From positions 1,286 through 65,285 of the forward strand of contig JBDLJX010000002.1 in NCBI GenBank assembly GCA_039714155.1: DNA of 64,000 nucleotides, written 5' to 3'. Each line of letters starts with the position of its first letter. Positions within the stretch are counted from its first letter, which is position 1. A program made the translations under genes and the position numbers. Below are positions 2,371 through 56,642 of this stretch, piece after piece. Under the pieces are notes generated by a model. The model saw nothing but the letters and a program-made list of their open reading frames with translations, was not told the origin of the DNA and searched no databases. The stretch is from Pseudomonadota bacterium (GTDB lineage: Bacteria; Pseudomonadota; Gammaproteobacteria; UBA9214).

Positions 2371-5128
2371 CTACCGCCTCGACTTCATAGATATCGTCGT
2401 CGGTATCGTCATCAAACAACCGGAAAAAGCGGGCACTCGGAATCGCCCCGCGGGCACTCATCAGGCGCCGGGTAATGCAAATGCCGTCCAGCGGTTCAAC
2501 CGAGAGGTCGCCTTCGATGCCATTCGGACAATCCGTAGCGGGATCTGATACCTGAATCCATTCACCATTCTCGTTCATCACGTAGTAATCGGTTTCAAAC
2601 AGCTGCACATAGGAGGTGACCTCCCCCGGGTTCCACGGATCAGGATCGCCACTCAACTCGAATTTGCCGTCACCGCCCTTGGGGCAGCTGTTCTGGGGGG
2701 TATTGTCGGCTTTGTCATGGCAACTGGTGCAGGACATGCCCCCCGCCTGCGGGCGGCAGGCATCCCAGATCGGCTGGATATGCTCCAGGTAGTTGATGGT
2801 GACCCTGCAGTTGCTGGTCCAGCTGTCCAGGCATAGCGGATCGTTTACCGGTGCGGGGGTCGTCAGATCGCCGTGGCTGTACACGAAAGGCTGGGCCAGT
2901 GTGCCGATGAAGGGATTGGTCCAGTAGTCTTCATAGACCACGTCGCCCGTGCCATTGGGTATGGTACCGAGCATGAATGCAAGGGCTTCCGCCATGGTAT
3001 CCCCGGCTGCGATGGCAATGATCTCTGGATTCGCATTCGGGAATGGCCCGGCTCCCGGCGCGCCCGGGTTGGCCGCGGCGGTCTCGATGTCCGTTCGTGC
3101 ATGCGGGATATCGTTGCCCGGGTCGTGGCAGCCGTGGCATTCACGCAGTTCACCTTCCTCCAGCAGCAGGGTGTGGGGATGGTCTGTCAGATAATTGTAG
3201 TTGTAGCCAGGCTCGGCGATCAGGTCCACGCGCTTGCCGTACTTGTTGACCACCTCGAAGGTGAAGTGGATATCATGCGGCACCTGGGCCAGGGCAGACC
3301 CGTCCGGCTCGACTGTGCCGTAAGACAGGATGTCATGCAGCTCCCGGTTACCGGAACCCAGGATCGGACGCAATCCCATCTGCGGCCCGCTGCCATCGGT
3401 GGGGTTGAGCACCGGGCTGTCCAGTATGGCCTGTTCCAGTTCACTGGGCATAAAGCGTCTGGTGAAGACGCGAATAAAACGTTCCGAACGATCGTCCGGC
3501 ACGGTGAGATAGGGATCACGCAGGGTCGTGATACCGCCATCCGGCTCGGCCATGTCCTGGCTGTCCAAATCGTAGACACTGAGAATATGGAAGGCACCAA
3601 AGCCCTCGTCCAGCAGGAAGTTTGCCTTCGGACTCTGATAGACACGCGCATTCTCGTTGTATTTGCCGATCACGATATCGGTATACAGGGCATGGCTGTG
3701 CCCCTTGACCACCGGAAGCCGGGTGTTTTCGTGCGGGTCGATCGTCCAGATCCCGTATTGTGGCGCACGCAAAGCGTCCGTGGTGGAAAAGCCCTCACAC
3801 ACGGCGCTGATCTCTCCTGACTGGGTGAGACACTGTGCCCAGCTCGCCAGCAGGCGACCGCTGCCATCACGATAGGGGAATACGGCGCTGTACCATCCGC
3901 TGGGCGAAACCTGGTCGGGATAGAAATTGACCAGGCCCGGTGTCATCGATTGTTCCGCCTCCCCGCTGACGGAATCATCGATGGGCTTGCCGACGGCATA
4001 GAAATTCTGGCTGTTGATCTTGACCACATCGCCGCCGTAAACCGGGTTGTAGATATGCCGCATAATGGTGATCAGGTTACCGTCGCGCATGGGGATCGGA
4101 TCCATATAGTGGATGAAGGATGCGTCGGTAACCTCTTCATTGATACTGCCGAAGTAGCGATGCAGGTTTCCGCCACTGGGTGCAATCCGGTACAGGCTAA
4201 GGATGTCCTGGATGAAAATACGGGTATCAGTCGTCTCGCCGGCAACCGAGCCGCCGCACTTGTCATCGGTGGTCCATGTCTTGGGATCATCCAGTCCGGG
4301 AGGAAATCCATTTCCGTTTCCGTGCCCGAAACCACCGCCGTGCGGATGGGTACTGAAATCCGGGTCATCGATGTTTTCTTCCGTACAGTCGGTCAGGACT
4401 TCGTACTCGCGACCCCAGCGAATAAACACGATCTGCCCGTCATTCATCGTGTTCGGCTCAATGTCATGATAGGCACCAAAGGTGATCTGAAACAGTTCGC
4501 TGCCATCCGGCTCCATGATATGCAGCAGCGAGGCCGGCTCGGCGAAATCGCCAATGTACTCCCGGCTGTCCGCCAGCCGGTAATCCCCGGTGGCGACCTG
4601 GCGGTCCGAAGAGAAGACGATGCGACCGTCATTCGTGTAGGCCGGGTTGGTGTCCTGACCTGTGTTGGCAAGTTCGTCATCCGCAAAAAACCTGCGAATC
4701 TCTCCGGTAGAAAAGTTGTACTCGTAGATATTCCAGTTGCTGTGGTGCGTATTGCCCTCCGGCCCGTGGGCAGCAAAGGCGATACGTTCGCCATCGGGCG
4801 AAACCGTGAGGTCCTTGACGTCATAGCTGCCACCGCCGAAATAGCCGGAGAGGATGTCCTTCTCATCAGAGGAAAGGGCAACCCTGTCACGCACAAACAA
4901 CCTGGCGCCAGGATTGAACTGATATGGCGAGCGTGGATCCAGAACCGGGCGGTCGTCCACAGAAGTCGTTTCCCCCATTTCCGGAAAGTCACGCACAATG
5001 TAGGCAAAGGGACTGTCCTGCAGTACGCCTTCCTCTCCGGTCAATCCTTCCTGCTGGCATGCGGCTACTGCGATAACCATCACTGTGACAAAAAAATGCA
5101 CTGTACATATTTTGAGTAGAGCATTCAT
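2237..5128 (-). CDS. 963-aa lipoprotein with PD40/TolB-like beta-propeller repeats and two c-type haem-binding motifs (CXXCH); function unknown
   Basis: AGGAGG sits 5 nt before the ATG. The signal peptide has a lipobox (MVIAVAAC). PD40-like blades are present (DLTVSPDGERIAFAA, NPAYTNDGRIVFSSDR, IMEPDGSELFQITFG, NTMNDGQIVFIRW). Two CXXCH motifs are present (RECHGCHDP and MSCTSCHDK). The C-terminus (IQPIWDACR...CTSCH...ELRLIAEWLDTGAHY) resembles Planctomycete-type cytochrome c domains. Confidence 0.6.
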   Translation of the reverse strand: MNALLKICTVHFFVTVMVIAVAACQQEGLTGEEGVLQDSPFAYIVRDFPEMGETTSVDDRPVLDPRSPYQFNPGARLFVRDRVALSSDEKDILSGYFGGGSYDVKDLTVSPDGERIAFAAHGPEGNTHHSNWNIYEYNFSTGEIRRFFADDELANTGQDTNPAYTNDGRIVFSSDRQVATGDYRLADSREYIGDFAEPASLLHIMEPDGSELFQITFGAYHDIEPNTMNDGQIVFIRWGREYEVLTDCTEENIDDPDFSTHPHGGGFGHGNGNGFPPGLDDPKTWTTDDKCGGSVAGETTDTRIFIQDILSLYRIAPSGGNLHRYFGSINEEVTDASFIHYMDPIPMRDGNLITIMRHIYNPVYGGDVVKINSQNFYAVGKPIDDSVSGEAEQSMTPGLVNFYPDQVSPSGWYSAVFPYRDGSGRLLASWAQCLTQSGEISAVCEGFSTTDALRAPQYGIWTIDPHENTRLPVVKGHSHALYTDIVIGKYNENARVYQSPKANFLLDEGFGAFHILSVYDLDSQDMAEPDGGITTLRDPYLTVPDDRSERFIRVFTRRFMPSELEQAILDSPVLNPTDGSGPQMGLRPILGSGNRELHDILSYGTVEPDGSALAQVPHDIHFTFEVVNKYGKRVDLIAEPGYNYNYLTDHPHTLLLEEGELRECHGCHDPGNDIPHARTDIETAAANPGAPGAGPFPNANPEIIAIAAGDTMAEALAFMLGTIPNGTGDVVYEDYWTNPFIGTLAQPFVYSHGDLTTPAPVNDPLCLDSWTSNCRVTINYLEHIQPIWDACRPQAGGMSCTSCHDKADNTPQNSCPKGGDGKFELSGDPDPWNPGEVTSYVQLFETDYYVMNENGEWIQVSDPATDCPNGIEGDLSVEPLDGICITRRLMSARGAIPSARFFRLFDDDTDDDIYEVEAVVTTNKDLSFHKGMLTPAELRLIAEWLDTGAHYYNDTDKYELPPP

Positions 5129-5236
5129 TTCATGCCTCCTGCTTCCTGGACTGGCCTGCCTTTACCTTTCATCGTCATGCTGTCTCAACTGATCAACCCC
5201 GGGTTTGCCGGTATTCCGCTATGCGGCTTGGCGAGA

Positions 5237-6211
5237 TCAGCCGGGGAGAAAGTCAAATTTGTAGTTGACCGGTGTCGCCAGGACATCATCGGGTCCGAAG
5301 TCGATCACACGGATTCGTGTCAGCAGCTTTTGCTCCAGCTTGATGCTCTCGAGCTCACTACTGATGAGTTCGATACTGGAAATCGCGCCATTGGGCTCGA
5401 TCACGATATGAAAGACATATTTGCCCCTGACTTCCGGATCCTTGCGCAACGCGCGGTTGTAGATGGCGTAAATCGCTCCCTTGTGCTGCTCGAAAACACG
5501 ACGTATGGACTCCATGTCCCTTCCACCGGCTACCGACGAATGATGTTTACCGCCACCGCTACCGCGCGCACCGCCCGAGCCGTCGCCGGTACCACCACCG
5601 CCGGTTCCGTCGCCGGCACCGAGTGGACTCGCCACCGAAACACCGCTGCGACCGGCCAGTTGCGTACTGCTGCCATGGCTGCTAATGGCGGAGGAGTTGA
5701 TTCCTCCGCTGGTCTTGACCGCCGTTTCGCGCCCAAGCACCGAGCGCCTGATCTTTGCTGCTGCACCGGTAGTAACGTTGGTGTTCCTGGCCTGAAGCTT
5801 GGCGACATCCAGCGAACTTCGCAGCGATTGCAGCTGATTGGAAAATGCCGCCACACCCATAGATGCGACTTTCTTCCTGGCCGGTGCTTTCTTTATCTGC
5901 TTCGCCGGGGGAGCCTCTTTTTTTACAGCTTTACTGGGCTCCACAGGCTTCTCGATTTCTACCGGCTCCGGTTTCGGCGCCGGGGGCGGTGCAGGCAACT
6001 TCTGCTGCAAAATAATCTTTGCCAGTGCTGGCGGCACGATTTCGGCCTGCTCCCGCTCAATTTCCGGTAACGGGAGCCAGGGGAAGACGATGGCCAGCAA
6101 CATAAACAGAAGAAGCAGGCGCTTGAGTATTTTCCTGAAGCGCACGTCTTCCTTGCGTGTGGCCTCCCAGGGAAGAACAAAATCGTTCAATAGCATTGCT
6201 GTCGTAGTCAT
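5237..6211 (-). CDS. tonB: TonB-family energy transducer
   Basis: N-terminal TM helix, Pro/Lys-rich spacer (PAPPPAPKPEPVEIEKPVEP) and a C-terminal TonB_C-like domain (GKYVFHIVIEPNGAISSIELI). It lies directly downstream of exbB-exbD-exbD. Confidence 0.8.
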   Translation of the reverse strand: MTTTAMLLNDFVLPWEATRKEDVRFRKILKRLLLLFMLLAIVFPWLPLPEIEREQAEIVPPALAKIILQQKLPAPPPAPKPEPVEIEKPVEPSKAVKKEAPPAKQIKKAPARKKVASMGVAAFSNQLQSLRSSLDVAKLQARNTNVTTGAAAKIRRSVLGRETAVKTSGGINSSAISSHGSSTQLAGRSGVSVASPLGAGDGTGGGGTGDGSGGARGSGGGKHHSSVAGGRDMESIRRVFEQHKGAIYAIYNRALRKDPEVRGKYVFHIVIEPNGAISSIELISSELESIKLEQKLLTRIRVIDFGPDDVLATPVNYKFDFLPG

Positions 6212-9186: not shown

Positions 9187-12013
9187 AACTCACCTGCATT
9201 TCCTGTTTGTCAAAACGGGCGGGTGACAGCTTCGCCATGGCGGCAAAACTCTTGTCTACCCAGTGATTGAAATTCCCGTCCCATGACTGCCTGATATTGT
9301 TCTCGTGTATTTCAATGGCCAGTTCCTCAAACGGAATGGCCTGTTCTTCCAGCAGCAGCTCATATTGCTGCAGTTCGGTTGTCGACAATCCTTTCGGGCG
9401 CGGCGAATCCATCAATTCCCTGGCAAAACTGGCGTACAGCTCGCCTATGCTGTAGGAGGCTCTGGCCGAGAATTCAAAAATTCCGTAACCGGCAGATTCT
9501 TCATAACGCTGCATTGCGTTTTTGAGTTTCTCGCTTTTCCTGGGCATCCACTTCTCGAGTGGCATACGCAATTTCACACGCTTAAACTCCCATCTCCAGT
9601 AGTCACCGTATTCAGCATTTGCCCAGGCAGCCAGCCACCGGGAACGATCGGTGCTGCGGCTGCCGGCCTTGCTGTCGCCATCGATAACCCGGCGTAACCA
9701 GTACAGATGCCGGGTCATGTCCTCGGTCTTCTTGTAGAGATGCGCCAGGTGGTAGCGTGCTTCCATCCGATTATCAAACGGTTCCTCGTAGGCATGTGCC
9801 CAGCGTTTGAAGTGATCAATGGCAATGGAGTACTCACCCGCCTTTTCGTACAACCCTGCGGCGATAAACAGGGCATCCCGCCTGGCGTTCTCGTCAGCAT
9901 CGTTGCGATAGATTGTCATGTATTCCCCTGCAGCCATCTTCCACTGCTCGTCCTGTTCGTAGGCATAGGCGATCTTCTGTGCAACAGTCTTGCCGAGTTC
10001 GTGATCGGGAAATTTGCTGCGCAACTCAAGCAGTTCCACCAGCGCCGGTTTCCATTGCTCCAGGGTCATCATGTGCGTTGCTGCATCGTATTGTGCCGCC
10101 ACGCGGGCACTTGACATGGGTGCGATGGTTTTGATTCGCAGAAAATGCTCGATAGCCTGATTCAGATCGTTGGCCTGCAATGCGGCATCACCCTGCTTGT
10201 AGGCGGTTGTAGCCACGCGCTCCAGGACGACCTCGTATTCCTTGTCCCCCCTGGGAATATATTTCAGTTGATTCTGGTATCCGGATTCGGCCTCCGCGTA
10301 ATTACCAAGCTCATACTGACTGTGGGCAATGACGCCATAGGCTGTCTTGTGCAATTTGCTGTCAATATCGCCGGTCCGGGATATCACACTGGTCGCCACC
10401 TCCAGTGCTTTCTCGTAGCGTTTCAGGGCAAACAGCTCTTCAGAGGCCTTGGCCAGAACCGCACCGGAACGCTTATCGCCCCTGTAGGTATTTACAAATT
10501 TCAGCTGGCTGTCCACAGTACGCGCGCGCCACTCGCTGAGTTGCGGTGAATCCTCTCCATGTGCCTTCTGCAGATCCTCTGCGTGCTTGTGGAAAGCGAT
10601 AATTGCGGCATAGCCGGCATCCGCGCCGTACTTGCCTTGCCCGTGGTGGTATGCGGTTTTCTCGTAACCCTCGATCGCAGCCACATAGTCACCGCCGTCG
10701 AACAGGGCTTCTGCCCGCATATAGGTCATCTCCTGGACTTGTGGATCCTCAGGGAAGGTTTCCATGAATTGCCGGTAGTATTCTGCGGCCTTGAGGAAGG
10801 AATCCCTCTCCTTCAGGGCGAGGGTGGCAAGCTTGTCACTATCCGCATCGGAGTCTGGGAGTTGCTTTTTCAGTTTTTGCCCGGTGCCGTGGTAATGACG
10901 CGCCAGCTCGTCAATATACGTCTTCAGATTGGGGATGACCTTCGCCTTTACATCACCTCCCTTGGTTTTCCAGAACTCGCTATGAATGCCGTAGTTCTGC
11001 ACGTAACGCTCTTTCTCCGGCAGGACCTGAGAGGAGAATTCTCCATCGATGTAAGCCCGGATCATCTCCGAGTGCATCTCGGGAGCCCGATCCGAGGTGG
11101 GATTCTGCAGTACAAAGGCACGATAGGAACCGGCCGAGTCCTCGTAACGCTCCTTTTCCAGGAAGTGTTTGCCCAGCCCCGAATACAGCAGCCAGGTGTA
11201 TTTCTTGCTTTGTGGGCGGTCTGCATAGAAATTGTTGATCTTTTCAGAGCCGCCCCCATAGGCAAGGCTCAGACTCATAATGCGCAGGGTGTCGTCGACA
11301 AGTGACCTTTCAACCTTGTCGAGTCGTTCGATCTTGCCGTCCCCGGGAACCAGCCGGTCGAGGACCTCGGAAAACGATGCCAGTCCACCATCGTAGTCTC
11401 CCAGCTTGTAGCGCGACCAGCCGAGCAGGTAATAGGAATTGTTGAGAAAGGCCGACTCCACACCCAGTGTGATTACAGATTGATAGGCAACCACGGCCTT
11501 TTCATATTGCCCGTCGCCGAAATGAATATCGCCCTTGCGGAAATACGCTTCACCAAGATGTGGCGATACCGGATATTGCTCGATAAAGGTATCCAGCGTT
11601 GACAGCGCCAGTATATCCTTGCCGTCGAGGTCATATGCCTTCGCAAGCTGATACAGGGATTCCGCATTGTCCGGATCACCGGGATACTTGCTGATCACCT
11701 CGTTGTAGGACTTGATCGCGGGTGCAAAATAACCGCCTTCCGGCGGATTGACATCAATCAATTGCCTGTAGTCGCCCTCCAGCATGTAGACACCGGCGAT
11801 ACGCCGTTCGATCTGCTCCCTGAGCTCCCTGTCTTCCACTATTTCCAGCAGCGACCGGTAGTCGTCCCTGACGTCCTTGTGACTGACCCTGGGCAGCGGC
11901 ACATCGTCAAGCGGTGCATCATCGGTGTTCAGTTTACCGATGGTCGTATTCTTCGATACAAGACCACACCCGGTGAGGAGCAGCATCGGGACTATCAGCG
12001 CTTTACGCAGCAT
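9167..12013 (-). CDS. large TPR-repeat lipoprotein (~948 aa from MLRKALIV start)
   Basis: Lipobox LLLTGCG. About 20 TPR-like repeats are spread over the whole length (recurrent AxxxY/AxxxF-LG spacing). The ORF is open to 12097; the start was chosen at the Met preceding the signal peptide. Confidence 0.7.
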   Translation of the reverse strand: MLRKALIVPMLLLTGCGLVSKNTTIGKLNTDDAPLDDVPLPRVSHKDVRDDYRSLLEIVEDRELREQIERRIAGVYMLEGDYRQLIDVNPPEGGYFAPAIKSYNEVISKYPGDPDNAESLYQLAKAYDLDGKDILALSTLDTFIEQYPVSPHLGEAYFRKGDIHFGDGQYEKAVVAYQSVITLGVESAFLNNSYYLLGWSRYKLGDYDGGLASFSEVLDRLVPGDGKIERLDKVERSLVDDTLRIMSLSLAYGGGSEKINNFYADRPQSKKYTWLLYSGLGKHFLEKERYEDSAGSYRAFVLQNPTSDRAPEMHSEMIRAYIDGEFSSQVLPEKERYVQNYGIHSEFWKTKGGDVKAKVIPNLKTYIDELARHYHGTGQKLKKQLPDSDADSDKLATLALKERDSFLKAAEYYRQFMETFPEDPQVQEMTYMRAEALFDGGDYVAAIEGYEKTAYHHGQGKYGADAGYAAIIAFHKHAEDLQKAHGEDSPQLSEWRARTVDSQLKFVNTYRGDKRSGAVLAKASEELFALKRYEKALEVATSVISRTGDIDSKLHKTAYGVIAHSQYELGNYAEAESGYQNQLKYIPRGDKEYEVVLERVATTAYKQGDAALQANDLNQAIEHFLRIKTIAPMSSARVAAQYDAATHMMTLEQWKPALVELLELRSKFPDHELGKTVAQKIAYAYEQDEQWKMAAGEYMTIYRNDADENARRDALFIAAGLYEKAGEYSIAIDHFKRWAHAYEEPFDNRMEARYHLAHLYKKTEDMTRHLYWLRRVIDGDSKAGSRSTDRSRWLAAWANAEYGDYWRWEFKRVKLRMPLEKWMPRKSEKLKNAMQRYEESAGYGIFEFSARASYSIGELYASFARELMDSPRPKGLSTTELQQYELLLEEQAIPFEELAIEIHENNIRQSWDGNFNHWVDKSFAAMAKLSPARFDKQEMQVSYGYGIK

Positions 12014-17538: not shown

Positions 17539-18141
17539 GTGTCCACCATGATGGATATGTTCCCGATCTGGACAGAGAGTCTCGCAACAGGTGCCCAGCT
17601 TTGGGTGGCCGGGCTGTTGATCCTGGTATTACTGCTGATTCTAATGTACCTGTTACGCAATCCCCTGCGCTATTGGCGGGAGGGACGCAGAATCACTCAG
17701 GGGGTAAAACGGCTCGGCGCCCGGATGCTGCGCAATGTAAATTTTCCGGACGGCATGGGCGGTGAAATTAGCATCGATTTTCTGATGCTGTCCACCGATG
17801 CAATACTGGTGATTGGCGTCAGACGCTATGACGGGATGATATTCGGAGGTGCGCAGACTGATGAATGGACCCAGACCATTAACAGCCGCAGCTACAAATT
17901 CCCCAATCCAGATAACTACCTTTTACAGCAAGTCAGCGCCGTCAAAAGTATTGTCCCTGAGACTCCAGTCAAGGGTATGCATCTATTCACCGATAATGCT
18001 TTATTTCCCTGGGACAAGCCGTCCAATGTGCTGCAAGTTAAGGATCTGCGCAGTAGCAGAACCCGTCGTCCCAAGCTGAAAAACATACCCGCGGAACTAC
18101 GTGCGGCGTGGACACAAATCACGCGATCCTTGAACCAATAA
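17539..18141 (+). CDS. NERD (nuclease-related) domain protein, N-terminally membrane-anchored
   Basis: N-terminal TM (LWVAGLLILVLLLILMYLL), then a NERD-like core (GVKRLGARMLRNVNFPDGMGGEISIDFLMLSTDAILVIGVRRYDGMIFGG...DEWTQ). Confidence 0.6.
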   Translation: MSTMMDMFPIWTESLATGAQLWVAGLLILVLLLILMYLLRNPLRYWREGRRITQGVKRLGARMLRNVNFPDGMGGEISIDFLMLSTDAILVIGVRRYDGMIFGGAQTDEWTQTINSRSYKFPNPDNYLLQQVSAVKSIVPETPVKGMHLFTDNALFPWDKPSNVLQVKDLRSSRTRRPKLKNIPAELRAAWTQITRSLNQ

Positions 18142-20898: not shown

Positions 20899-21807
20899 TT
20901 ATCTATCTCTTTCAATGATATACAGGGAGATGTGGCGCAGGGGATCGGCCGTCTCGGCAAATATACTGAGGCTCTCCATGGCATCCTCGTGCAACTCGGT
21001 GGCCCGCTGCCGGGAGGCATTCATGCCGATCAGCGCCGGGTAGGTGGATTTCTCCTGCAACTGGTCGGCACCGCTGCGTTTGCCCAGTGTATCGGTCTCG
21101 CCTTCGACATCGAGGATGTCATCACGAATCTGGAAGGCCAGTCCGATGCACTTGGCGTAGTGGTCCAGGCGATCCAGCGTCGATGGCTCCAGGTCTTCTA
21201 CGGTAAGTGCACCGAGCACCACACTGGCACGAATCAGTGCACCGGTCTTGTGGATATGCATGTCTTCCAGTTCGGCAATTTCCAGCTGCCGGCCAGCTGC
21301 CTCCAGATCGATGGTCTGGCCACCAGCCATGCCACGCGAACCAGCCGCCAGTGCCAGGGTCTCGACCATGCGCTGGCGGGTCGGGTTGGCAGACAGGTGG
21401 TTGTCGTGAGCCAGCACGTAAAATGCCAGAGATTGCAGGGCATCCCCTGCCAGGATTGCGTTGGCCTCGCCGAAGGCCTTGTGACAGCTGGGCTTGCCGC
21501 GGCGCAGGTCATCATCGTCCATGGACGGCAGGTCGTCGTGAATCAGTGAATAGGTGTGCATCAGTTCGATGGCGCAGGCCGGGCCATCCAGGACCTTCCA
21601 TGCAGTGCCAACGGCCTGACCGCTGGCATACACCAGGGTTGGCCGGATGCGTTTGCCGCCATCGAACACGGCATAACGCATGGCGTCATGCAGGCTGGCG
21701 GGATGCGTGCCGGCAGGTGGCAGCCAGTGGTACAAGGCAGATTCCAGGCGTGCCTGGCAGTCTGCCATGAAGGATCGCAGGGCAGGGTCAGCTGGTTTCA
21801 CTGTCAA
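20899..21807 (-). CDS. ispA: (2E,6E)-farnesyl diphosphate synthase
   Basis: FARM (LIHDDLPSMDDDDLRRG) and SARM (FQIRDDILD) motifs. It overlaps xseB as in the canonical xseB-ispA arrangement. Confidence 0.9.
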   Translation of the reverse strand: MTVKPADPALRSFMADCQARLESALYHWLPPAGTHPASLHDAMRYAVFDGGKRIRPTLVYASGQAVGTAWKVLDGPACAIELMHTYSLIHDDLPSMDDDDLRRGKPSCHKAFGEANAILAGDALQSLAFYVLAHDNHLSANPTRQRMVETLALAAGSRGMAGGQTIDLEAAGRQLEIAELEDMHIHKTGALIRASVVLGALTVEDLEPSTLDRLDHYAKCIGLAFQIRDDILDVEGETDTLGKRSGADQLQEKSTYPALIGMNASRQRATELHEDAMESLSIFAETADPLRHISLYIIERDR

Positions 21808-22030
21808 AGGGTACGATGTCTTCCTGGCCGTTTTTCTTCAGCAGCATCTCAACTTTCTGTTCAGCGTCCTTGAGCGCCTGCTGGCAACTGCGGGTCAGCT
21901 GGATACCGCGTTCAAAATGCTGCAGGGATTCCTCCAGACTCAGATCGCCCTGTTCCATTTTCTCAACCAGGGCCTCAAGTTCCTTGAGGGATGCTTCAAA
22001 CGGGGGAGTTTTATCAGTTTTTTTCGCCAT
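21788..22030 (-). CDS. xseB: exodeoxyribonuclease VII small subunit
   Basis: 80 aa. FEASLKELEALVEKMEQGDLSLEESLQHFERGIQL matches the XseB consensus. Confidence 0.85.
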   Translation of the reverse strand: MAKKTDKTPPFEASLKELEALVEKMEQGDLSLEESLQHFERGIQLTRSCQQALKDAEQKVEMLLKKNGQEDIVPFDSETS

Positions 22031-22120
22031 GGCTTGAATCTTTGCTGTAATCCGCTTACGTTACCCCAGCGTAGCGCCAAGGGCAATTTGATCGCTACCG
22101 GAAAGACTGAATAACAGGGC

Positions 22121-22150
22121 TTGACAGTGCCGGTACTGAAGTCTAATGTT
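22121..22150 (+). promoter_or_regulatory. candidate sigma70 promoter for the rubrerythrin gene
   Basis: TTGACA at 22121-22126, then TCTAAT/CTAATG 15-16 nt downstream. Imperfect dyad TTATTAGACacgGTCTAAgTTATTA and direct repeats TTGATATA x2 lie between it and the ATG. Confidence 0.35.
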
Positions 22151-22236
22151 CCTTATTAGACACGGTCTAAGTTATTAGGGGCTGGGGTCCGGATTGATAT
22201 ACAAGTTGATATATATGACACCATGAGGATTGAATT

Positions 22237-22656
22237 ATGGATTTAAAAGGTAGTTCCACAGAGCAAAACCTGAAAGATGCATTTTCCGGTGAGTCCCAGG
22301 CAAATCGCCGTTACCTGTATTTTGCATCCAAGGCTGATGTTGAAGGCTATAACGATGTCGCCGCGGTATTTCGCTCAACCGCAGAAGGCGAAACCGGCCA
22401 CGCCCATGGACACCTTGAATACCTCGAGGAGGTTGGCGACCCGGCGACCGGCCTGCCAATCGGTGGCACCGGCGACAACCTGAAGGCCGCCATTGCCGGT
22501 GAAACCCACGAATACACCGATATGTATCCGGGCATGGCGAAGTCTGCCCGTGACGAGGGTTTTGACGAAATCGCCGACTGGTTTGAAACGCTGGCGAAGG
22601 CCGAGCGGTCGCATGCCAACCGGTTTCAGAAAGCACTGGACGCACTGGATGACTGA
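22237..22656 (+). CDS. rubrerythrin-family ferritin-like diiron protein (no rubredoxin domain)
   Basis: 139 aa. Two ExxH diiron motifs ([14 protein letters not shown]; ETHEYTDMY...[10 protein letters not shown]) are typical of the short rubrerythrin/erythrin family. Confidence 0.85.
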
Positions 22657-22680
22657 GCCATCGTCTTTCGGTCATGATCG

Positions 22681-22701
22681 GGGGCCGGCCTTGCCGGCCC
22701 C
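22681..22701 (+). promoter_or_regulatory. GC-rich hairpin between the rubrerythrin stop and the Fe-S gene start (possible attenuator / processing site)
   Basis: GGGGCCGGC-ctt-GCCGGCCCC is a perfect 9-bp stem. No U-tract follows. Confidence 0.3.
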
Positions 22702-22736
22702 TTCCTGCTCAGGGGTTAGCCGGTAGGGAATTCACC

Positions 22737-24083
22737 ATGGCATCTATAACTGAAGGTAGTCGCGAAGGCAGTCTGGAAGCGCCGACCCGGTATCCGATTG
22801 ACTGGACCAGTGAGTGTTTCTACGACGAAGAGGATTTATATAAGGAACTCGAGCGGGTCTATGGCATTTGTCATGGTTGCCGCCGTTGCTTCAACCTTTG
22901 TAATGCCTTTCCGACACTATTCGATGCCATTGACGAGTCTGGCACCATGGAGCTCGATGGTGTTGCGCGTGAGGTCTACTGGGATGTTGTCGATCATTGT
23001 TACCTGTGTGACATGTGCTACATGACCAAGTGCCCGTATGTACCGCCGCACGAATGGAACGTCGATTTCCCGCACCTGATGCTGCGTTCCAAGGCAGTGA
23101 AGTTCAAACAGGGCAAGACCCGTCCACGCGACAAGCTGCTGACCTCGACCGACACCGTTGGCAAGCTGGCCGGCATCCCGATCATTACCCGGGCCGTCAA
23201 TGCCACCAACAAGTCTGCCACCGGACGCAAGCTGGTGGAGAAGCTGCTCTCGGTTGACCCGGATGCGGTGCTGCCGGAATACCATTCAAAAACCTTGCGC
23301 AAGCGCGTGGGCAAATTGAAGAGCCGGGATACCGGTGGCGTGGCGGCCGGTCCGACACAGGGCAGGGTGGCGCTGTTTGCGACCTGTTACTGCAACTACA
23401 ATGAGCCGCGTATCGGCAAGGACCTGGTTGCCGTGTATGAGCACAACAATATCCCGGTCACCATTGCACCGAAGGAACAGTGCTGCGGTATGCCGAAACT
23501 CGAACTGGGTGACCTGGAAGCCGTGCGCAAGGCGAAAGCAGTGAATATCCCGGCGCTGGTGAAACTGATTGATGCCGGCTGGGACATCGTTGCGCCGGTG
23601 CCGTCCTGTGTGCTGATGTTCAAGCAGGAACTGCCATTGATGTTCCCGGATGATGCGGATGTCATCAAGGTGCGGGATGCAATCTACGATCCGTTTGAGT
23701 ACCTGATGCTGCGCCACAAGTACGACAAGCTGAATACCGATTTCAGGACGCCTCTTGGCAAGATTTCCTATCATGTTGCCTGTCACCTGCGGGTGCAGAA
23801 TATCGGCATGAAGACGCGTGACCTGCTGCAGCTGGTGCCGGATACCCAAGTGGAAGCGATCGAGCGCTGTTCCGGTCATGATGGTACCTACGCGGTCAAG
23901 AGCGAGTGCCACGATATTTCCATGAAGATCTGCCGGCCGGTGGCCAACCGGATAGCCAGGGCCGAGGCCGATCATTACAGCAGTGATTGCCCGATGGCCG
24001 GACACCAGATCGAAAACTGCCTGAAGAATGGCAGCAAGCCGGAACATCCACTGTCGCTGCTGCGCATGGCGTACGGGATTTAG
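22737..24083 (+). CDS. (Fe-S)-binding protein with two 4Fe-4S ferredoxin motifs and two CCG domains (HdrD/GlpC/LutA-like)
   Basis: CHGCRRCFNLCNAFP and CYLCDMCYMTKCPYVPP cluster motifs, then Cys-rich CCG-type regions (CYCNYNEP...CCGMP; PSCVLMF...). The start was chosen at MASITEG, which has an RBS. The ORF is open from 22674. Confidence 0.75.
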   Translation: MASITEGSREGSLEAPTRYPIDWTSECFYDEEDLYKELERVYGICHGCRRCFNLCNAFPTLFDAIDESGTMELDGVAREVYWDVVDHCYLCDMCYMTKCPYVPPHEWNVDFPHLMLRSKAVKFKQGKTRPRDKLLTSTDTVGKLAGIPIITRAVNATNKSATGRKLVEKLLSVDPDAVLPEYHSKTLRKRVGKLKSRDTGGVAAGPTQGRVALFATCYCNYNEPRIGKDLVAVYEHNNIPVTIAPKEQCCGMPKLELGDLEAVRKAKAVNIPALVKLIDAGWDIVAPVPSCVLMFKQELPLMFPDDADVIKVRDAIYDPFEYLMLRHKYDKLNTDFRTPLGKISYHVACHLRVQNIGMKTRDLLQLVPDTQVEAIERCSGHDGTYAVKSECHDISMKICRPVANRIARAEADHYSSDCPMAGHQIENCLKNGSKPEHPLSLLRMAYGI

Positions 24084-24097
24084 GTGTTTACCAAAGT

Positions 24098-24226
24098 GTA
24101 CATAAGTTAGCCGGCATAACCTTACGGGACACGCTGCAAATACATCCTTGTACGCTCAATGGCCGCGTCCATGCGGCCAATGGTCCCGAAAGCTTATGCC
24201 GGCTAACTTATATACTTATTAAGTAT
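24098..24226. repeat. long imperfect inverted repeat (large stem-loop) plus a 15-bp palindrome in the Fe-S / DUF3501 intergenic region
   Basis: Arms ATAAGTTAGCCGGCATAA (24102-24119) and TTATGCCGGCTAACTTAT (24194-24211) are perfectly complementary and extend to ~22 bp with one mismatch. Inner stems are CGGGAC/GTCCCG and GGCCGC-gtccat-GCGGCC. Downstream palindrome ATACTTAtTAAGTAT (24211-24226). Confidence 0.5.
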
Positions 24227-24259
24227 CACTGCAGAGGCACAGGCAAGAAGGTATTGACG

Positions 24260-24844
24260 ATGGAAAAACTTACCCGCAATGATCTCTACAGCCTCGAGCA
24301 ATATGCCGGGGCGCGCCAGGATTTCCGTGCCAGCGTTATGGCGCACAAGAAAAACCGCAAAATACATATCGGCCCGTCGGCGACGGTGTACTTTGAAGAT
24401 CGTCAGACAGTCCAGTACCAGGTACAGGAAATGCTGCGCATCGAACGCATCTTCGAAGCTGCGGGTATCGAGGAAGAGCTGGCGGCTTACAATCCACTGA
24501 TCCCGGATGGCAGCAACTGGAAGGCCACCTTCATGATTGAGGAGCCGGACGTGGAGAAACGTCGCGAACTGCTTGCCGGGATGACTGGCATCGAAGACCG
24601 GGTCTGGGCCAGGGTTGATGGTCAAGAGCCGGTCTATGCTATCGCTGATGAAGACCTGGAACGTGCTACGGAAGAGAAGACCTCGTCAGTACATTTTCTG
24701 CGGTTTGAACTGACAGCAGACATGGTTGAGGCGCTAAAGGGCGGTGCATCACTGTCAACGGGTATCGATCACAATCACTATAACTACCAGGTCGAGCCGG
24801 TGGCTGAAAATATCCGCATGGCACTGGTGGCCGATCTCGCCTGA
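24260..24844 (+). CDS. DUF3501-family protein
   Basis: 194 aa from MEKLTRNDLYSLEQYAGARQDFR... with NPLIPDGSNWKATFMIE and VHFLRFEL. The size, motifs and adjacency to a CCG Fe-S protein fit DUF3501. The ORF is open from 23987, but the upstream part overlaps the hairpin element. Confidence 0.65.
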   Translation: MEKLTRNDLYSLEQYAGARQDFRASVMAHKKNRKIHIGPSATVYFEDRQTVQYQVQEMLRIERIFEAAGIEEELAAYNPLIPDGSNWKATFMIEEPDVEKRRELLAGMTGIEDRVWARVDGQEPVYAIADEDLERATEEKTSSVHFLRFELTADMVEALKGGASLSTGIDHNHYNYQVEPVAENIRMALVADLA

Positions 24845-24925
24845 CAGGATGCGGCGTCGTATCAAAATCACGGACTTGCAGCAATACTCGAAATACGGGC
24901 GGCGTGGCGCTAAACTGCGCTCCCC

Positions 24926-25483
24926 ATGAGCACGTATCTGCCTGCAAGGTCACTACGCCGGGTTCTTGTATTGTTGCTGGTCGCAGCGCTGCAGCCGGCA
25001 AATGCAGTACAGGAAGATGAGGAGGCCGGCTGGACGCCGGAGCACATGCCGCCCGCATCGCCGTGGCGCGAACAGTCATTCGAATTACCACCGTACCCGG
25101 AAGACGGCCGCCTGATCGAGATCTCGGTCCAGACCGGGAATTTCCCTTTCCGCGTGTTTGTCGATCCTGAGTCGCTAACGATAGCCGGGGATGGCGTGGT
25201 GCGCCTTGCCACGGTTATCCGTTCCACAGCCGGTGCGGAAAATATCTCGTTTGAAGGTATCCGCTGCAAGACACGTGAGTTCCGGCGCTATGCCTACGGC
25301 GCCAGGGACAGCTGGCAGGTACTGGAGGGTACCAATTGGCAACAAATAAAGTCAGGCGGGATGGGGCATTATCGCTTCGTACTGTATCGTGATTATGTGT
25401 GTGATCCGGAAATTTCGGGATTGAAGGTAAATGAAATGATCCAGCGGATGCGTTACTCACGGGGGGCGGTACTGGATGAATGA
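24926..25483 (+). CDS. CNP1-like family secreted protein
   Basis: Signal peptide, then FELPPYPEDGRLIEI...VRLATVIRSTAGAENISFEGIRCKTREFRRYAYGARDSW, reminiscent of CNP1-like lipoproteins. Confidence 0.5.
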   Translation: MSTYLPARSLRRVLVLLLVAALQPANAVQEDEEAGWTPEHMPPASPWREQSFELPPYPEDGRLIEISVQTGNFPFRVFVDPESLTIAGDGVVRLATVIRSTAGAENISFEGIRCKTREFRRYAYGARDSWQVLEGTNWQQIKSGGMGHYRFVLYRDYVCDPEISGLKVNEMIQRMRYSRGAVLDE

Positions 25484-25516
25484 CAGTCCCGATTTCCAGA
25501 CAGGTATTGCTACGAC

Positions 25517-27403
25517 ATGAGTGCGGTCTACGACGCGGCGGCGATCGAGATACTCAGTGGCCTGGAGCCGGTGCGCAAGCGCCCCGGCATGTACACCGAT
25601 ACCAGCCGCCCCAACCACCTGGCGCAGGAAGTCATCGACAACAGCGTTGACGAGGCCATTGCCGGTCATGCCTCGCGCATCGACGTTACCCTCTATAAGG
25701 ATGGTTCGCTGGAAGTGCGCGATAACGGTCGTGGCATGCCGGTAGATCTTCACCCGGCTGAAGGAATTCCGGGCGTCGAGGTCATCCTGACGCGTTTGCA
25801 TGCCGGTGGTAAATTTTCAGCAAAGAACTATGCCTTCGCCGGTGGTCTGCACGGTGTCGGTGTTTCGGTCGTCAATGCACTGTCAAAACACCTCGAGGTG
25901 TGGGTGCGTCGTGGTGGCAAGGAATACAATATGGCCTTTTCTTCCGGTGACACGGTGTCAGCGCTGGAGGAGACCGGCAAGATCGGCAAGCAGAATACCG
26001 GCACCACCCTGCGGTTCTGGCCGGACCCGAAATATTTTGACTCGGCGAAATTCTCCCTGCCGCGTTTGCAGCATGTGCTGCGCGCCAAGGCGGTGCTGTG
26101 TCCGGGGTTGCACGTCCGCCTGAAGGTCGAGGCCACTGGCGAGAAGTCCGAGTGGTATTACGAAGACGGTTTGACGGATTACCTCACGGGCGCTATTGGT
26201 GAGGCCGTGCGCCTGCCGGCAGAAGCATTTGTCGGCGACATGGAAGGCAATGCCGAGGCCGCTGCCTGGGCGCTGGTGTGGTTGCCGGAGGGCGGTGAAC
26301 CGGTCGGCGAGAGTTACGTCAACCTGATTCCCACCACGCAGGGCGGGACCCATGTGAATGGCCTGCGTATGGGGCTGACCGAGGCAATTCGCGAGTTCTG
26401 CGAATTGCGTAACCTGTTGCCGCGCGGTGTGAAGCTGGCACCCGAGGATATCTGGGAACAGTGCAGTTATATCCTCTCCGTGAAATTGCAGGACCCGCAG
26501 TTCAGTGGCCAGACCAAGGAACGCTTGTCATCGCGCGAGTGTGCGGCATTTGTCTCGGGCGTGGTCAAGGACGCCTTTGGCTTGTGGTTGAACCACCACA
26601 TTGACACCGGTGAGAAGATCGCCTGGCTGGCTATCGGAAATGCCCAGAAACGCCAGCGTGCCGGCAAGAAAGTGGTGCGCAAAAAGCTCACCAGTGGGCC
26701 GGCATTGCCCGGCAAGCTGGCCGATTGCGCTTCCAGTGATACCGAACGTACCGAGTTGTTCCTGGTCGAGGGTGATTCCGCCGGCGGTTCTGCCAAACAG
26801 GCACGCAACCGCGAGTTCCAGGCCATCATGCCGCTGCGTGGCAAGATTCTGAATACCTGGGAAGTCGATCCGGCCGAGGTGCTGGCTTCACAGGAAGTCC
26901 ATGATATTTCCGTTGCCATCGGTGTCGATCCCGGTGTCAACAACCTCAATAACCTGCGTTACAGCAAGATCTGCATCCTTGCCGATGCCGACTCCGATGG
27001 TGCGCACATCGCGACCCTGCTATGCGCCTTGTTCCTGCGTCATTTCCATTCACTGGTCGGGACCGGGCATGTGTATGTCGCCATGCCGCCGCTGTACCGC
27101 ATCGATGTCGGCAAGGAAGTATTCTATGCCCTTGACGATGCAGAGAAGCAGGGCGTGCTAGACCGGATTGCTGCCGAAAAGCTGAAGGGCAAGGTGATCG
27201 TGCAACGTTTCAAGGGGCTGGGTGAAATGAACCCGTTGCAGTTACGCGAAACAACGATCGCCCCCGAGACCCGCCGGCTGGTGCAGCTGACCCTGGATAC
27301 GAAGGATGATACGCACAAGATCATGGACATGTTGCTGGCCCGCAAGCGTTCATCGGATCGACGGTCATGGCTGGAAAAGATGGGCGACATGGCAGTGACA
27401 TAA
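25517..27403 (+). CDS. parE: DNA topoisomerase IV subunit B
   Basis: 628 aa with GHKL ATPase, TOPRIM (LFLVEGDSAGGSAKQARNREFQAIMPLRGKILN) and C-terminal motifs. Adjacent to parC. Confidence 0.95.
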   Translation: MSAVYDAAAIEILSGLEPVRKRPGMYTDTSRPNHLAQEVIDNSVDEAIAGHASRIDVTLYKDGSLEVRDNGRGMPVDLHPAEGIPGVEVILTRLHAGGKFSAKNYAFAGGLHGVGVSVVNALSKHLEVWVRRGGKEYNMAFSSGDTVSALEETGKIGKQNTGTTLRFWPDPKYFDSAKFSLPRLQHVLRAKAVLCPGLHVRLKVEATGEKSEWYYEDGLTDYLTGAIGEAVRLPAEAFVGDMEGNAEAAAWALVWLPEGGEPVGESYVNLIPTTQGGTHVNGLRMGLTEAIREFCELRNLLPRGVKLAPEDIWEQCSYILSVKLQDPQFSGQTKERLSSRECAAFVSGVVKDAFGLWLNHHIDTGEKIAWLAIGNAQKRQRAGKKVVRKKLTSGPALPGKLADCASSDTERTELFLVEGDSAGGSAKQARNREFQAIMPLRGKILNTWEVDPAEVLASQEVHDISVAIGVDPGVNNLNNLRYSKICILADADSDGAHIATLLCALFLRHFHSLVGTGHVYVAMPPLYRIDVGKEVFYALDDAEKQGVLDRIAAEKLKGKVIVQRFKGLGEMNPLQLRETTIAPETRRLVQLTLDTKDDTHKIMDMLLARKRSSDRRSWLEKMGDMAVT

Positions 27404-38378: not shown

Positions 38379-38851
38379 TATTTTAGCTCCGTGCAGACAG
38401 TTTGATCATTCCCCTCAAGTGCCGCGCGCAGGGTATGCCAGGGCAGGGTGGCGCATTTGATACGCATCGGGTATTCGCGCACACCGGTCAGCACCTGCAG
38501 CTTGCCGACATCACCGGCCTGGCCTTCATCGGTCAACAGGTTGTGCATATCCTGGAACAGGGCCCGGGCCTCGGCGACCGTCTTGCCCTTGATACACTCG
38601 GTCATCATCGATGCCGAGGCAGTGGAAATGGCGCAGCCGGAACCCTCGAAACCGACATCCTCGACAATATTGTTTGTCACTTTCAGGTGGATAGTAAACT
38701 CGTCATTACAGATTGGATTAAAACCGTGTGCGTGACAGTTGGCACCTGCCGGCATCTTGAGGAAGTTGCGCGGGTTGCGGTTATGGTCAAGGATCATTTC
38801 CTCATAGAGCTGTCGCTGGTATGACATCGTTCCGGCCCCGTGGGTGCTCAC
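38378..38851 (-). CDS. sufU: SufU/NifU-like Fe-S cluster assembly sulfur-transfer protein
   Basis: LYEEMILDHNRNPRNF, NPICNDEF, EGSGCAISTASASMMTECIKGKTV and RIKCATLPW match the SufU/IscU-N family. The start may be the internal Met at 38827. Confidence 0.8.
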   Translation of the reverse strand: MSTHGAGTMSYQRQLYEEMILDHNRNPRNFLKMPAGANCHAHGFNPICNDEFTIHLKVTNNIVEDVGFEGSGCAISTASASMMTECIKGKTVAEARALFQDMHNLLTDEGQAGDVGKLQVLTGVREYPMRIKCATLPWHTLRAALEGNDQTVCTELK

Positions 38852-56153: not shown

Positions 56154-56642
56154 GTGAAACTGACAAGCAAGGGGCGTTATGCCGTAACTGCGATGCTGGA
56201 TCTCGCTTTCCACTCACAGGCGGGTCCGGTCACCTTGTCGCAGATATCGCGGCGGCAGGATATCTCCCTCTCCTATCTGGAACAGTTATTCACCCGGCTG
56301 CGCAAGAGTGAACTGGTTCGGAGTACCCGTGGCCCGGGTGGTGGCTATTCACTCAACCGCTCACCGGAGCAGATTCCGGTTGCCGGGATTATATCCGCAG
56401 TTGATGAGGTGGTCGCTACCACACGCTGCAGTGGATCCAATGACTGCCAGGATGGCCAGCGGTGTCTGACCCACGAACTCTGGGACGAGTTGTCTCGTCA
56501 GATATATGGTTTTCTGAACGAAATTACACTCAAGGACCTGATGGATGACGAGAACATCAAGAGTGTCGCCGAGCGTCAGGACAACCGCATGCACGACCAT
56601 GTCGATGTTGCCATTAACCTGCCTGATCCGGAAAAGCCATAA
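56154..56642 (+). CDS. iscR: Rrf2-family Fe-S cluster regulator IscR
   Basis: [18 protein letters not shown], with the three-Cys cluster-ligating segment [19 protein letters not shown]. Confidence 0.85.

Follow-up and report, generated by a model that had tools for sequence, protein, structure and literature searches.

A rubrerythrin gene that is followed on the same strand by the genes of a CCG-domain iron-sulfur protein and of a DUF3501 protein raises the question of what the three products do together, and whether their grouping is a module not described before. The trio lies in a stretch of 64,000 nucleotides (referred to here as the window) from a gammaproteobacterium of the lineage UBA9214 (GenBank assembly GCA_039714155.1, contig JBDLJX010000002.1, positions 1,286 to 65,285 of the forward strand). 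An earlier interpretation made from the letters of this stretch (the sequence-only reading) had found three co-directional genes, and these were recovered as an aerobic-type rubrerythrin (RBR), a GlpC/HdrD-like CCG iron-sulfur protein (RFO) and a DUF3501 protein, all on the plus strand (Table 1). It had taken them for a putative redox-stress or sulfur-linked module with an uncharacterised electron-transfer pathway. As a module the trio is not uncharacterised. The locus is a member of a system that has already been defined and named the "aerobic-type rubrerythrin system" (Cardenas, Quatrini and Holmes, 2016; PMC5114695, cited here from excerpts), and that was taken up by Gray et al. (2020; PMC7050145, likewise cited from excerpts), who described the trio in Andalucia and further protists, where it is equipped with signals for mitochondrial targeting. 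The explanation favoured here, which is held with fair confidence, is that the locus encodes a three-protein hydroperoxide reductase of oxygen-exposed bacteria that belongs to this system. The step assigned to RBR has experimental backing in homologues, and the roles given to RFO and DUF3501 are those that we infer.

The gene trio and its rubrerythrin

The window copy agrees with the excerpted description of the system in its protein families and how their genes are linked, in the missing rubredoxin domain and in proteobacterial distribution. The rubrerythrin of the system has about 140 amino acids (aa) and no C-terminal rubredoxin domain, and that of the window has 139 and lacks the domain as well; a DUF3501 protein (PF12007) is co-localised with it, and the cluster also encodes a CCG iron-sulfur oxidoreductase of the COG0247 type, which is related to GlpC yet distinct from it. 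Nothing essential differs from that description, the window copy adding a palindromic insertion of 118 nt. According to the same excerpts, all three genes are present in 185 of 4461 genomes, DUF3501 or RFO almost never occurs without RBR, fusions of RFO and DUF3501 exist in Nitrosomonas, the lineage correlates with aerobic lifestyles, and RFO was proposed to replace the lost rubredoxin domain. In Burkholderia pseudomallei, the genes bpss1837-1839 rise jointly ~3.3-fold (log2) with H2O2 in a sigma-E-dependent manner (PMC4175613); for that species, the co-expression under peroxide that the sequence-only reading had suggested measuring is already on record. A 2025 preprint on the rubrerythrin of the same organism (BpRbr) draws the same operon and states the same hypothesis.

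The conservation of the three-gene neighbourhood was examined in a genome scan with a 10-sequence DUF3501 alignment, in which each species was represented by one genome. The scan yielded 80 loci, mostly from gammaproteobacterial metagenome-assembled genomes (MAGs), with DUF3501 proteins 57-74% identical to that of the window. Loci with at least 1.9 kb of upstream DNA (67 of the 80) were regarded as informative, and 63 of them contain RBR, RFO and DUF3501 in this order. One informative locus (L060) has RBR and then DUF3501 directly, with no RFO, two (L047, L051) have no RBR, and one (L017) has neither RBR nor RFO. Where the upstream DNA was shorter than 1.9 kb, ten loci show RFO, or RFO and a partial RBR, up to the contig end, two (L024, L062) have RBR directly followed by DUF3501 without RFO, and one (L043, with 62 nt upstream) is uninformative. 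RBR is linked to DUF3501 in 63 + 3 loci. The association of the trio is not due to chance, and the view of the sequence-only reading that the genes form a fixed, co-inherited redox-stress module is supported. In 17 loci, -1 to 3 nt separate the stop codon of RFO from the start codon of DUF3501, an arrangement suggestive of translational coupling between the two genes, and the median spacer in loci other than the window is 16 nt. Two Thioalkalivibrio loci (L029, ~4530-4835; L033, ~5415-5720) carry an extra gene between RFO and DUF3501, coding for a 100-aa protein of the encapsulated-ferritin type (EncFtn-like; PF22277, 1.8e-43) whose closest structure is 3K6C (NE0167 of Nitrosomonas europaea).

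The Pfam Rubrerythrin match spans residues 11-133 of RBR, and neither a rubredoxin domain nor any other further domain was recognised. In phmmer searches, RBR matched the PDB entries of B. pseudomallei Rbr (9ONM/4DI0; E ~1e-74) and sulerythrin (1J30; 2.6e-51), and its alignments with 4DI0, 9ONM and 1J30 run over the full length. These three are domain-swapped dimers according to the BpRbr preprint; a further structure on record is 8FUH. The six-ligand di-metal site of the pattern E, ExxH, E, ExxH is present (E19, E52-x2-H55, E89/E92 and E123-x2-H126, with the ExxH motifs at residues 52-55 and 123-126). At least 97% of 69 homologues share its ligands, with E53 and E124 as the corresponding bridges in BpRbr. 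Across orders, RBR remains 83-96% identical to the window copy, compared with 56-78% for its partners RFO and DUF3501, and the share of positions conserved in at least 97% of sequences is 73% in RBR (69 homologues) as against 25-26% in the other two proteins. Such high conservation would fit a small protein with several binding surfaces, and predicts several binding partners.

In its length of ~140 aa, the lack of a rubredoxin domain and its two ExxH motifs, RBR resembles BpRbr, sulerythrin and the ferriperoxin (Fpx) of Hydrogenobacter thermophilus. H2O2 as well as organic hydroperoxides are substrates of ferriperoxin, which reduces them with FNR and NADPH, and a ferriperoxin knockout does not grow at 10% O2 (PMC3317640); for sulerythrin, the BpRbr preprint cites peroxidase activity. 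The parallels have limits, as the RFO gene of H. thermophilus is unlinked and FNR with NADPH was the donor assayed there, sulerythrin of Sulfolobus tokodaii was isolated with an Fe-Zn site, and the activity of the window RBR is predicted from homologues. The classical rubrerythrins of Desulfovibrio vulgaris and Pyrococcus furiosus share with RBR the diiron four-helix bundle, the reduction of peroxide and the relay of electrons from an iron-sulfur centre, and have rubredoxin and NADH:rubredoxin oxidoreductase as partners. They lack the domain swap of the BpRbr and sulerythrin structures and, in contrast to RBR, possess a rubredoxin domain at the C-terminus. Because this domain has been lost, RBR needs an outside electron donor, and in the window a separate 448-aa iron-sulfur protein is the presumed relay. 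By analogy with its relatives, RBR would be the catalyst of the system, a diiron four-helix bundle of the sulerythrin/ferriperoxin type that converts H2O2 and organic hydroperoxides to water or alcohol.

The failure of the ferriperoxin knockout specifically at high O2 (PMC3317640) would also agree with an oxygen reductase that turns O2 to water with electrons from RFO and lowers the cytoplasmic O2 level. The same can be said of the correlation with aerobic lifestyles reported in the excerpts of PMC5114695 and of the ability of diiron carboxylate sites to activate O2, which has been treated in the literature for the sulerythrin site. However, the activities of homologues were measured with hydroperoxides and no oxidase activity was found in the literature searched, and an oxygen reductase appears improbable.

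The iron-sulfur protein and DUF3501

The two [4Fe-4S] motifs that the sequence-only reading had recognised in RFO (CX2CX2CX3-4C; C45/48/51/55 and C88/91/94/99) are 100% conserved among 63 homologues, and the Pfam Fer4 models reach 13-16 bits on the protein, which is below threshold. In the same homologues the CCG half contains seven invariant cysteines (217, 249, 250, 291 and 349, 378, 418), so that RFO has 15 invariant cysteines, eight of them ferredoxin-type. The first CCG domain passes the Pfam cut-off with 48.6 bits; in the second, CCG is replaced by CSG, and the score of 17.4 bits falls short of the cut-off of 20.6. In the AlphaFold2 model of RFO, the N-terminal ferredoxin half had a predicted local distance difference test score (pLDDT) below 50 and the CCG half was of good quality, and the CCG half alone was therefore compared with known structures. 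Foldseek matched it to LutA (9a6l; E 3.8e-8, template modelling (TM) score 0.74), to HdrB (8rwn and 5odc; TM 0.56-0.61) and to EtfD of Mycobacterium smegmatis (9ojn; E 1.3e-5). Judged by this model, RFO has a real tandem CCG fold in a cysteine-poor variant. The claim of two CCG domains thus stands for domain 1, which Pfam recognises, and for the C-terminal half as a whole, which superposes on the two-CCG proteins LutA and HdrB, and fails for domain 2 as a canonical motif.

HdrB- and HdrD-type proteins are defined by two complete CCG motifs (CXnCCGXmCXXC, ten cysteines), two non-cubane [4Fe-4S] clusters and Hdr partner subunits. Like RFO, the proteins GlpC, HdrD/HdrB, LutA and EtfD combine an N-terminal 2x[4Fe-4S] ferredoxin module with a tandem CCG fold. 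Unlike them, RFO has seven rather than ten conserved cysteines in this fold, a degenerate second CCG motif, and no adjacent flavoprotein, cytochrome b or Hdr partner. The resemblance bears on a different interpretation, in which the trio would be a sulfur-linked module of the heterodisulfide reductase type whose CCG protein acts on a disulfide or persulfide and is protected by RBR. The NCBI protein name 'heterodisulfide reductase-related', the fold match to HdrB and the many sulfur oxidisers among the hosts of the 80 loci (Thioalkalivibrio, Thiothrix, Sulfurifustis) speak for it. It is nevertheless very improbable, as RFO has seven of the ten CCG-half cysteines of an HdrB-type pair and CSG as second motif, the loci with genes called show no hdrA/C/E, dsr or sox genes on either side of the trio, and the trio also occurs in the non-sulfur Burkholderia, Steroidobacteraceae and Methyloversatilis and in protist mitochondria. 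A DsrE-like gene that had been noted elsewhere in the window was not found among 20 open reading frames (ORFs) scanned with Pfam, a scan that was not exhaustive, and nothing emerged in support of the sulfur link proposed by the sequence-only reading.

The closest annotated family of RFO is GlpC, which is the C subunit in anaerobic glycerol-3-phosphate dehydrogenase. Two GlpC models are its best NCBIfam matches, and JGI names many of its homologues 'glycerol-3-phosphate dehydrogenase subunit C'. That RFO is GlpC itself, with incidental adjacency to RBR and DUF3501, is hardly tenable, since both equivalog cut-offs are missed (238.1 vs 278 and 161.5 vs 279.9), no glpA or glpB is adjacent, the neighbours being RBR and DUF3501, the gene is fixed between these two in 63/67 loci, and in the excerpts of Cardenas et al. 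(PMC5114695) GlpC is a mere outgroup for the RFO family.

For the hydroperoxide reductase that we favour, RFO would be the electron donor to RBR, passing electrons through its CCG-domain cluster and two [4Fe-4S] clusters, and the plausibility of the CCG protein as an electron-transfer partner of the diiron protein, as the sequence-only reading had it, is supported. Quinol, a thiol or a ferredoxin/flavoprotein may be the ultimate electron source. The RFO relatives GlpC, EtfD and HdrD are linked to quinones or thiols, and on this ground a peroxidase fed by quinol or thiol would be plausible.

DUF3501 was rightly said to have no assigned function. A crystal structure from B. pseudomallei (3FJV) is on record, which the window protein matches with an E-value of 5.7e-58. 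A concatenated query of RFO and DUF3501 returned no fusions but only RFO proteins of 444-459 aa among its best 120 matches, and the evidence for fusions therefore rests on PMC5114695. DUF3501 may be an adaptor or accessory subunit without a redox role, in contact with RFO as well as RBR. Such bridging is suggested by its genomic distribution, as it is fused or coupled to RFO in many genomes, yet kept with RBR where RFO is absent.

Promoter, operator and hairpins

The sigma70-like promoter that had been read upstream of the rubrerythrin is conserved in relatives, as its -35 box and its -10 box of the form TAnnGT recur in L003 and L005. A consensus scanner did not flag TTGACA-17-TAATGT, whose -10 box is weak (3/6 positions match), and in the region 21700-25600 it returned promoter-like and terminator-like sites at chance frequency. 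This one sigma-70 promoter is predicted to drive the operon. Near it, a dyad and direct repeats had been described. The dyad is real and conserved, being the palindrome TTAGAC-ACG-GTCTAA that starts 6 nt after the -10 box; the TTGATATA direct repeats (22194 and 22206) have no conserved counterpart in the two relatives aligned, L003 and L005.

The palindrome is confined to one kind of site. Its core TAGAC-N3-GTCTA has 20 copies in 799 kb of related loci, all of them 39-241 nt upstream of the RBR start. The pattern TTAGAM-N3-KTCTAA has 36 exact matches in 34/85 loci, all just upstream of RBR and none elsewhere in the loci, and a single match in the 64-kb window. Its offset from the TTGAC box is fixed (37 sites): at most sites a TTGAC -35 box precedes the operator by 35-42 nt, which places the operator at about +1, and at six sites by 21-27 nt, so that the operator overlaps the -10 region. 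By analogy with known operators, these are the positions of a repressor. The consensus across loci, TTTAGA[AC]-N3-[GT]TCTAAA, matches the iron control element (ICE) bound by Irr in alphaproteobacteria (Rudolph, 2006; consensus TTTAGAA-N3-TTCTAAA, PMC1698941), and the overlap with the transcription start is as at the Irr-repressed genes bfr and blr7895. In some alphaproteobacteria a rubrerythrin-like gene is the minimal Irr target, and neither Irr nor ICE was found outside the Alphaproteobacteria (Rodionov et al., 2006; PMC1698941). The present case differs from that regulon in that the hosts are Gammaproteobacteria, the inner positions in the window are C/G (TTAGAC...GTCTAA) and the match is one of sequence.

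Two other identities of the element were considered and rejected. GTCTAA might be a sigma-E -10 box, as the B. pseudomallei operon is sigma-E-dependent, but a -35 box resembling GAACTT is missing 16-17 nt upstream; since what is conserved is palindromic, an operator fits better. NemR/TetR-type operators have the form TAGACC-N4-GGTCTA. The window element has N3 spacing instead, and in its wider consensus it agrees with the ICE.

Candidate regulators were found in relatives. In L055 (1889-2365, minus strand) an Irr-like Fur-family gene lies beside the trio, with 137.8 bits to IrrA against a cut-off of 150, 133 bits to Irr, just under the cut-off, and 71 bits to PerR. In L086 an Irr-like gene (5001-5426, plus strand) lies 1.7 kb from the trio, with a LysR-family gene in between, and the RBR promoter of this locus contains two overlapping near-perfect ICE boxes (9640-9675, minus strand). 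Irr-like homologues also occur in gammaproteobacterial MAGs, Ectothiorhodospira mobilis, Thiobacillaceae and Burkholderiales. The ICE-like operator is probably bound by an Irr-type Fur-family repressor, and repression of this type would tie the synthesis of the iron-rich proteins to iron/haem status and oxidative stress. No report of an ICE-like operator with Irr-like regulators in Gammaproteobacteria was found in the literature searched, and neither this operator nor the hairpin between RBR and RFO is mentioned in the excerpts of PMC5114695 and PMC7050145.

The operator also bears on whether the trio handles iron rather than peroxide, with RBR serving as ferroxidase or as a small store of iron, RFO and DUF3501 delivering or releasing iron or repairing oxidised metal centres, and the Irr-type operator switching the module by iron supply. 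Operators of this type control the iron-storage and iron-usage genes bfr and mbfA in alphaproteobacteria (PMC1698941), the Thioalkalivibrio operons contain the EncFtn-like ferroxidase gene, and the rbr of Pelagibacter ubique, which responds to iron, bears the annotation of a putative ferroxidase. This interpretation is nonetheless unlikely: peroxidase activity has been measured for ferriperoxin and sulerythrin, the ferriperoxin knockout is oxygen-sensitive (PMC3317640), the B. pseudomallei trio is induced by H2O2 (PMC4175613), and Irr control would be equally expected for any iron-rich enzyme.

GC-rich hairpins had been reported between the genes, and the description holds for one of the two spacers. 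The RBR-RFO spacer contains a 9-bp GC stem, its best 40-nt hairpin having a free energy of -24.7 kcal/mol. Hairpins of -15 kcal/mol or better (40 nt) occur in 60/63 related spacers, with a median of -23.9 kcal/mol vs -13.5 for shuffled spacers, and 44/63 spacers beat all 20 of their own shuffles. The presence of the hairpin is conserved and its sequence is not; several stems in related loci are followed by U-runs. It is probably a partial terminator or mRNA stabiliser that makes RBR more abundant than RFO and DUF3501, and as a conserved element it predicts unequal subunit dosage.

The RFO-DUF3501 spacer holds, instead of a simple GC hairpin, the 118-nt palindrome, whose 33-nt arms are 91% complementary (minimum free energy -72.2 kcal/mol, z = -7.3). 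It is present in L001 and L002 (DUF3501 94% identical) and absent in L003 and L005 (78%). The contigs of L001 and L002 break or fold back at the palindrome (at their 5' ends), which looks like an assembly artefact. The distant L067 has in the same spacer (~5870-5990) a hairpin with a common 17-nt core, TACATCCYTGTASGCTC, and different stems, and the near relatives L105 and L107 have unrelated CCCTCTCCC/GGGAGAGGG hairpins there that resemble repetitive extragenic palindromic (REP) elements. An Rfam search of 21900-25000 (E <= 1) gave only a chance snoRNA match. When dispersal was tested with an 18-mer from the arm, 14 metagenome matches were obtained, none with the trio or the whole element, which by estimate is about the number expected by chance for a collection of that size. 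The palindrome is read here as a candidate lineage-specific insertion, similar to REP elements or miniature inverted-repeat transposable elements (MITEs), into a permissive spacer; that it is a regulatory RNA is conceivable.

Standing of the mechanism and genomic surroundings

Several points weigh against the proposed hydroperoxide reductase and its regulation. In the three loci L024, L060 and L062, as well as in the Thermoproteales (PMC5114695, excerpts), RBR and DUF3501 occur without an intervening RFO, and ferriperoxin is active in vitro with FNR and NADPH alone (PMC3317640), for which reason RFO may be dispensable. DUF3501 has no recognisable cofactor site, and its sole fold relatives are generic beta-sandwiches. 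No report of RFO reducing RBR or of DUF3501 binding either protein, and no experimental test of RFO or DUF3501, was found in the literature searched. As for the metal, B. pseudomallei Rbr binds several (BpRbr preprint), which leaves the physiological one unsettled, and in P. ubique rbr, termed a ferroxidase, is slightly up under iron limitation. Finally, no Fur-family gene lies in the 64-kb window, and the regulator in this organism is consequently derived from relatives.

The features of the locus are compiled in Table 1. The longest ORF of RFO begins at 22674, the true start being the ATG at 22737; identical NCBI proteins of 448 aa (P0391) and 194 aa on record confirm the start codons of RFO and DUF3501. 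The DUF3501 gene lies 1.6 kb downstream of RBR on the same strand. Divergent neighbours upstream are xseB, ispA and folE2, xseB having this position in 40/66 loci, and downstream follow a CNP1-like gene and then parE and parC.

Table 1. Features of the rubrerythrin locus in window coordinates.
Feature	Position	Strand	Basis
Sigma-70-type promoter, TTGACA (22121-22126), 17-nt spacer, TAATGT (22144-22149)	22121-22149	+	Read from sequence
ICE-like palindromic operator TTAGAC-ACG-GTCTAA, ~+1 of predicted transcript	22156-22170	+	Pattern match
RBR, aerobic-type (rubredoxin-less) rubrerythrin, 139 aa	22237-22656	+	Pfam Rubrerythrin 5.7e-30
GC-rich intercistronic stem-loop GGGGCCGGC-CUU-GCCGGCCCC, no U-run	22681-22701	+	RNA fold
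RFO, GlpC/HdrD-like CCG Fe-S protein, 448 aa	22737-24083	+	Pfam CCG 9.1e-13
Putative palindromic (REP/MITE-like) insertion, 118 nt, RFO-DUF3501 spacer	24098-24215	+	33-nt arms
DUF3501 protein, 194 aa	24260-24844	+	PF12007 3e-72

The CNP1-like gene (PF08750; 24926-25483), whose product has a signal-peptide-like N-terminus, lies 3' of DUF3501. It is found downstream on the same strand in 9/80 genome loci and in the closest metagenomic relatives, and probably reflects lineage synteny rather than being part of the module. The gap between DUF3501 and this gene is 485 nt in L105 (957-1440) and L106 (726-1209), compared with 81 nt in the window. Elsewhere in the window, the segment 14001-18000 has a G+C content of 0.48-0.49 vs 0.53-0.60 in the remainder and contains, besides ORFs without a Pfam match, an ORF with a NERD domain (17539-18138); possibly the segment is an acquired island. 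A NifU_N (IscU/SufU-like) gene adjoins larger ORFs, with which it may form an Fe-S assembly cluster, and an Rrf2-family regulator gene lies farther on (38381-38851 and 56154-56639; two genes scanned).

As a discovery the locus carries small weight: the module has already been published, named and placed in a phylogeny, and structures for two of the three proteins have been published as well. What retains interest are the roles of RFO and DUF3501, the electron source, and the ICE-like operator with Irr-like regulators in Gammaproteobacteria, which together form a regulator-operator pair open to testing, with a hint that iron/haem status may govern expression. The defence system itself is present in hundreds of aerobic bacteria, and also in some archaea and in the mitochondria of some protists. 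A bolder picture, offered tentatively and regarded as rather doubtful, is that of a non-haem hydroperoxide reductase complete in itself and powered by thiols or the respiratory chain, in which RFO would take electrons from a thiol or, like its relatives GlpC, EtfD and HdrD, from the quinol pool, DUF3501 would dock the RBR dimer onto RFO and an Irr-type haem/iron switch would act at the ICE-like operator in Gammaproteobacteria. If such a switch does operate there, the Irr/ICE regulon would extend beyond the Alphaproteobacteria, its supposed limit.

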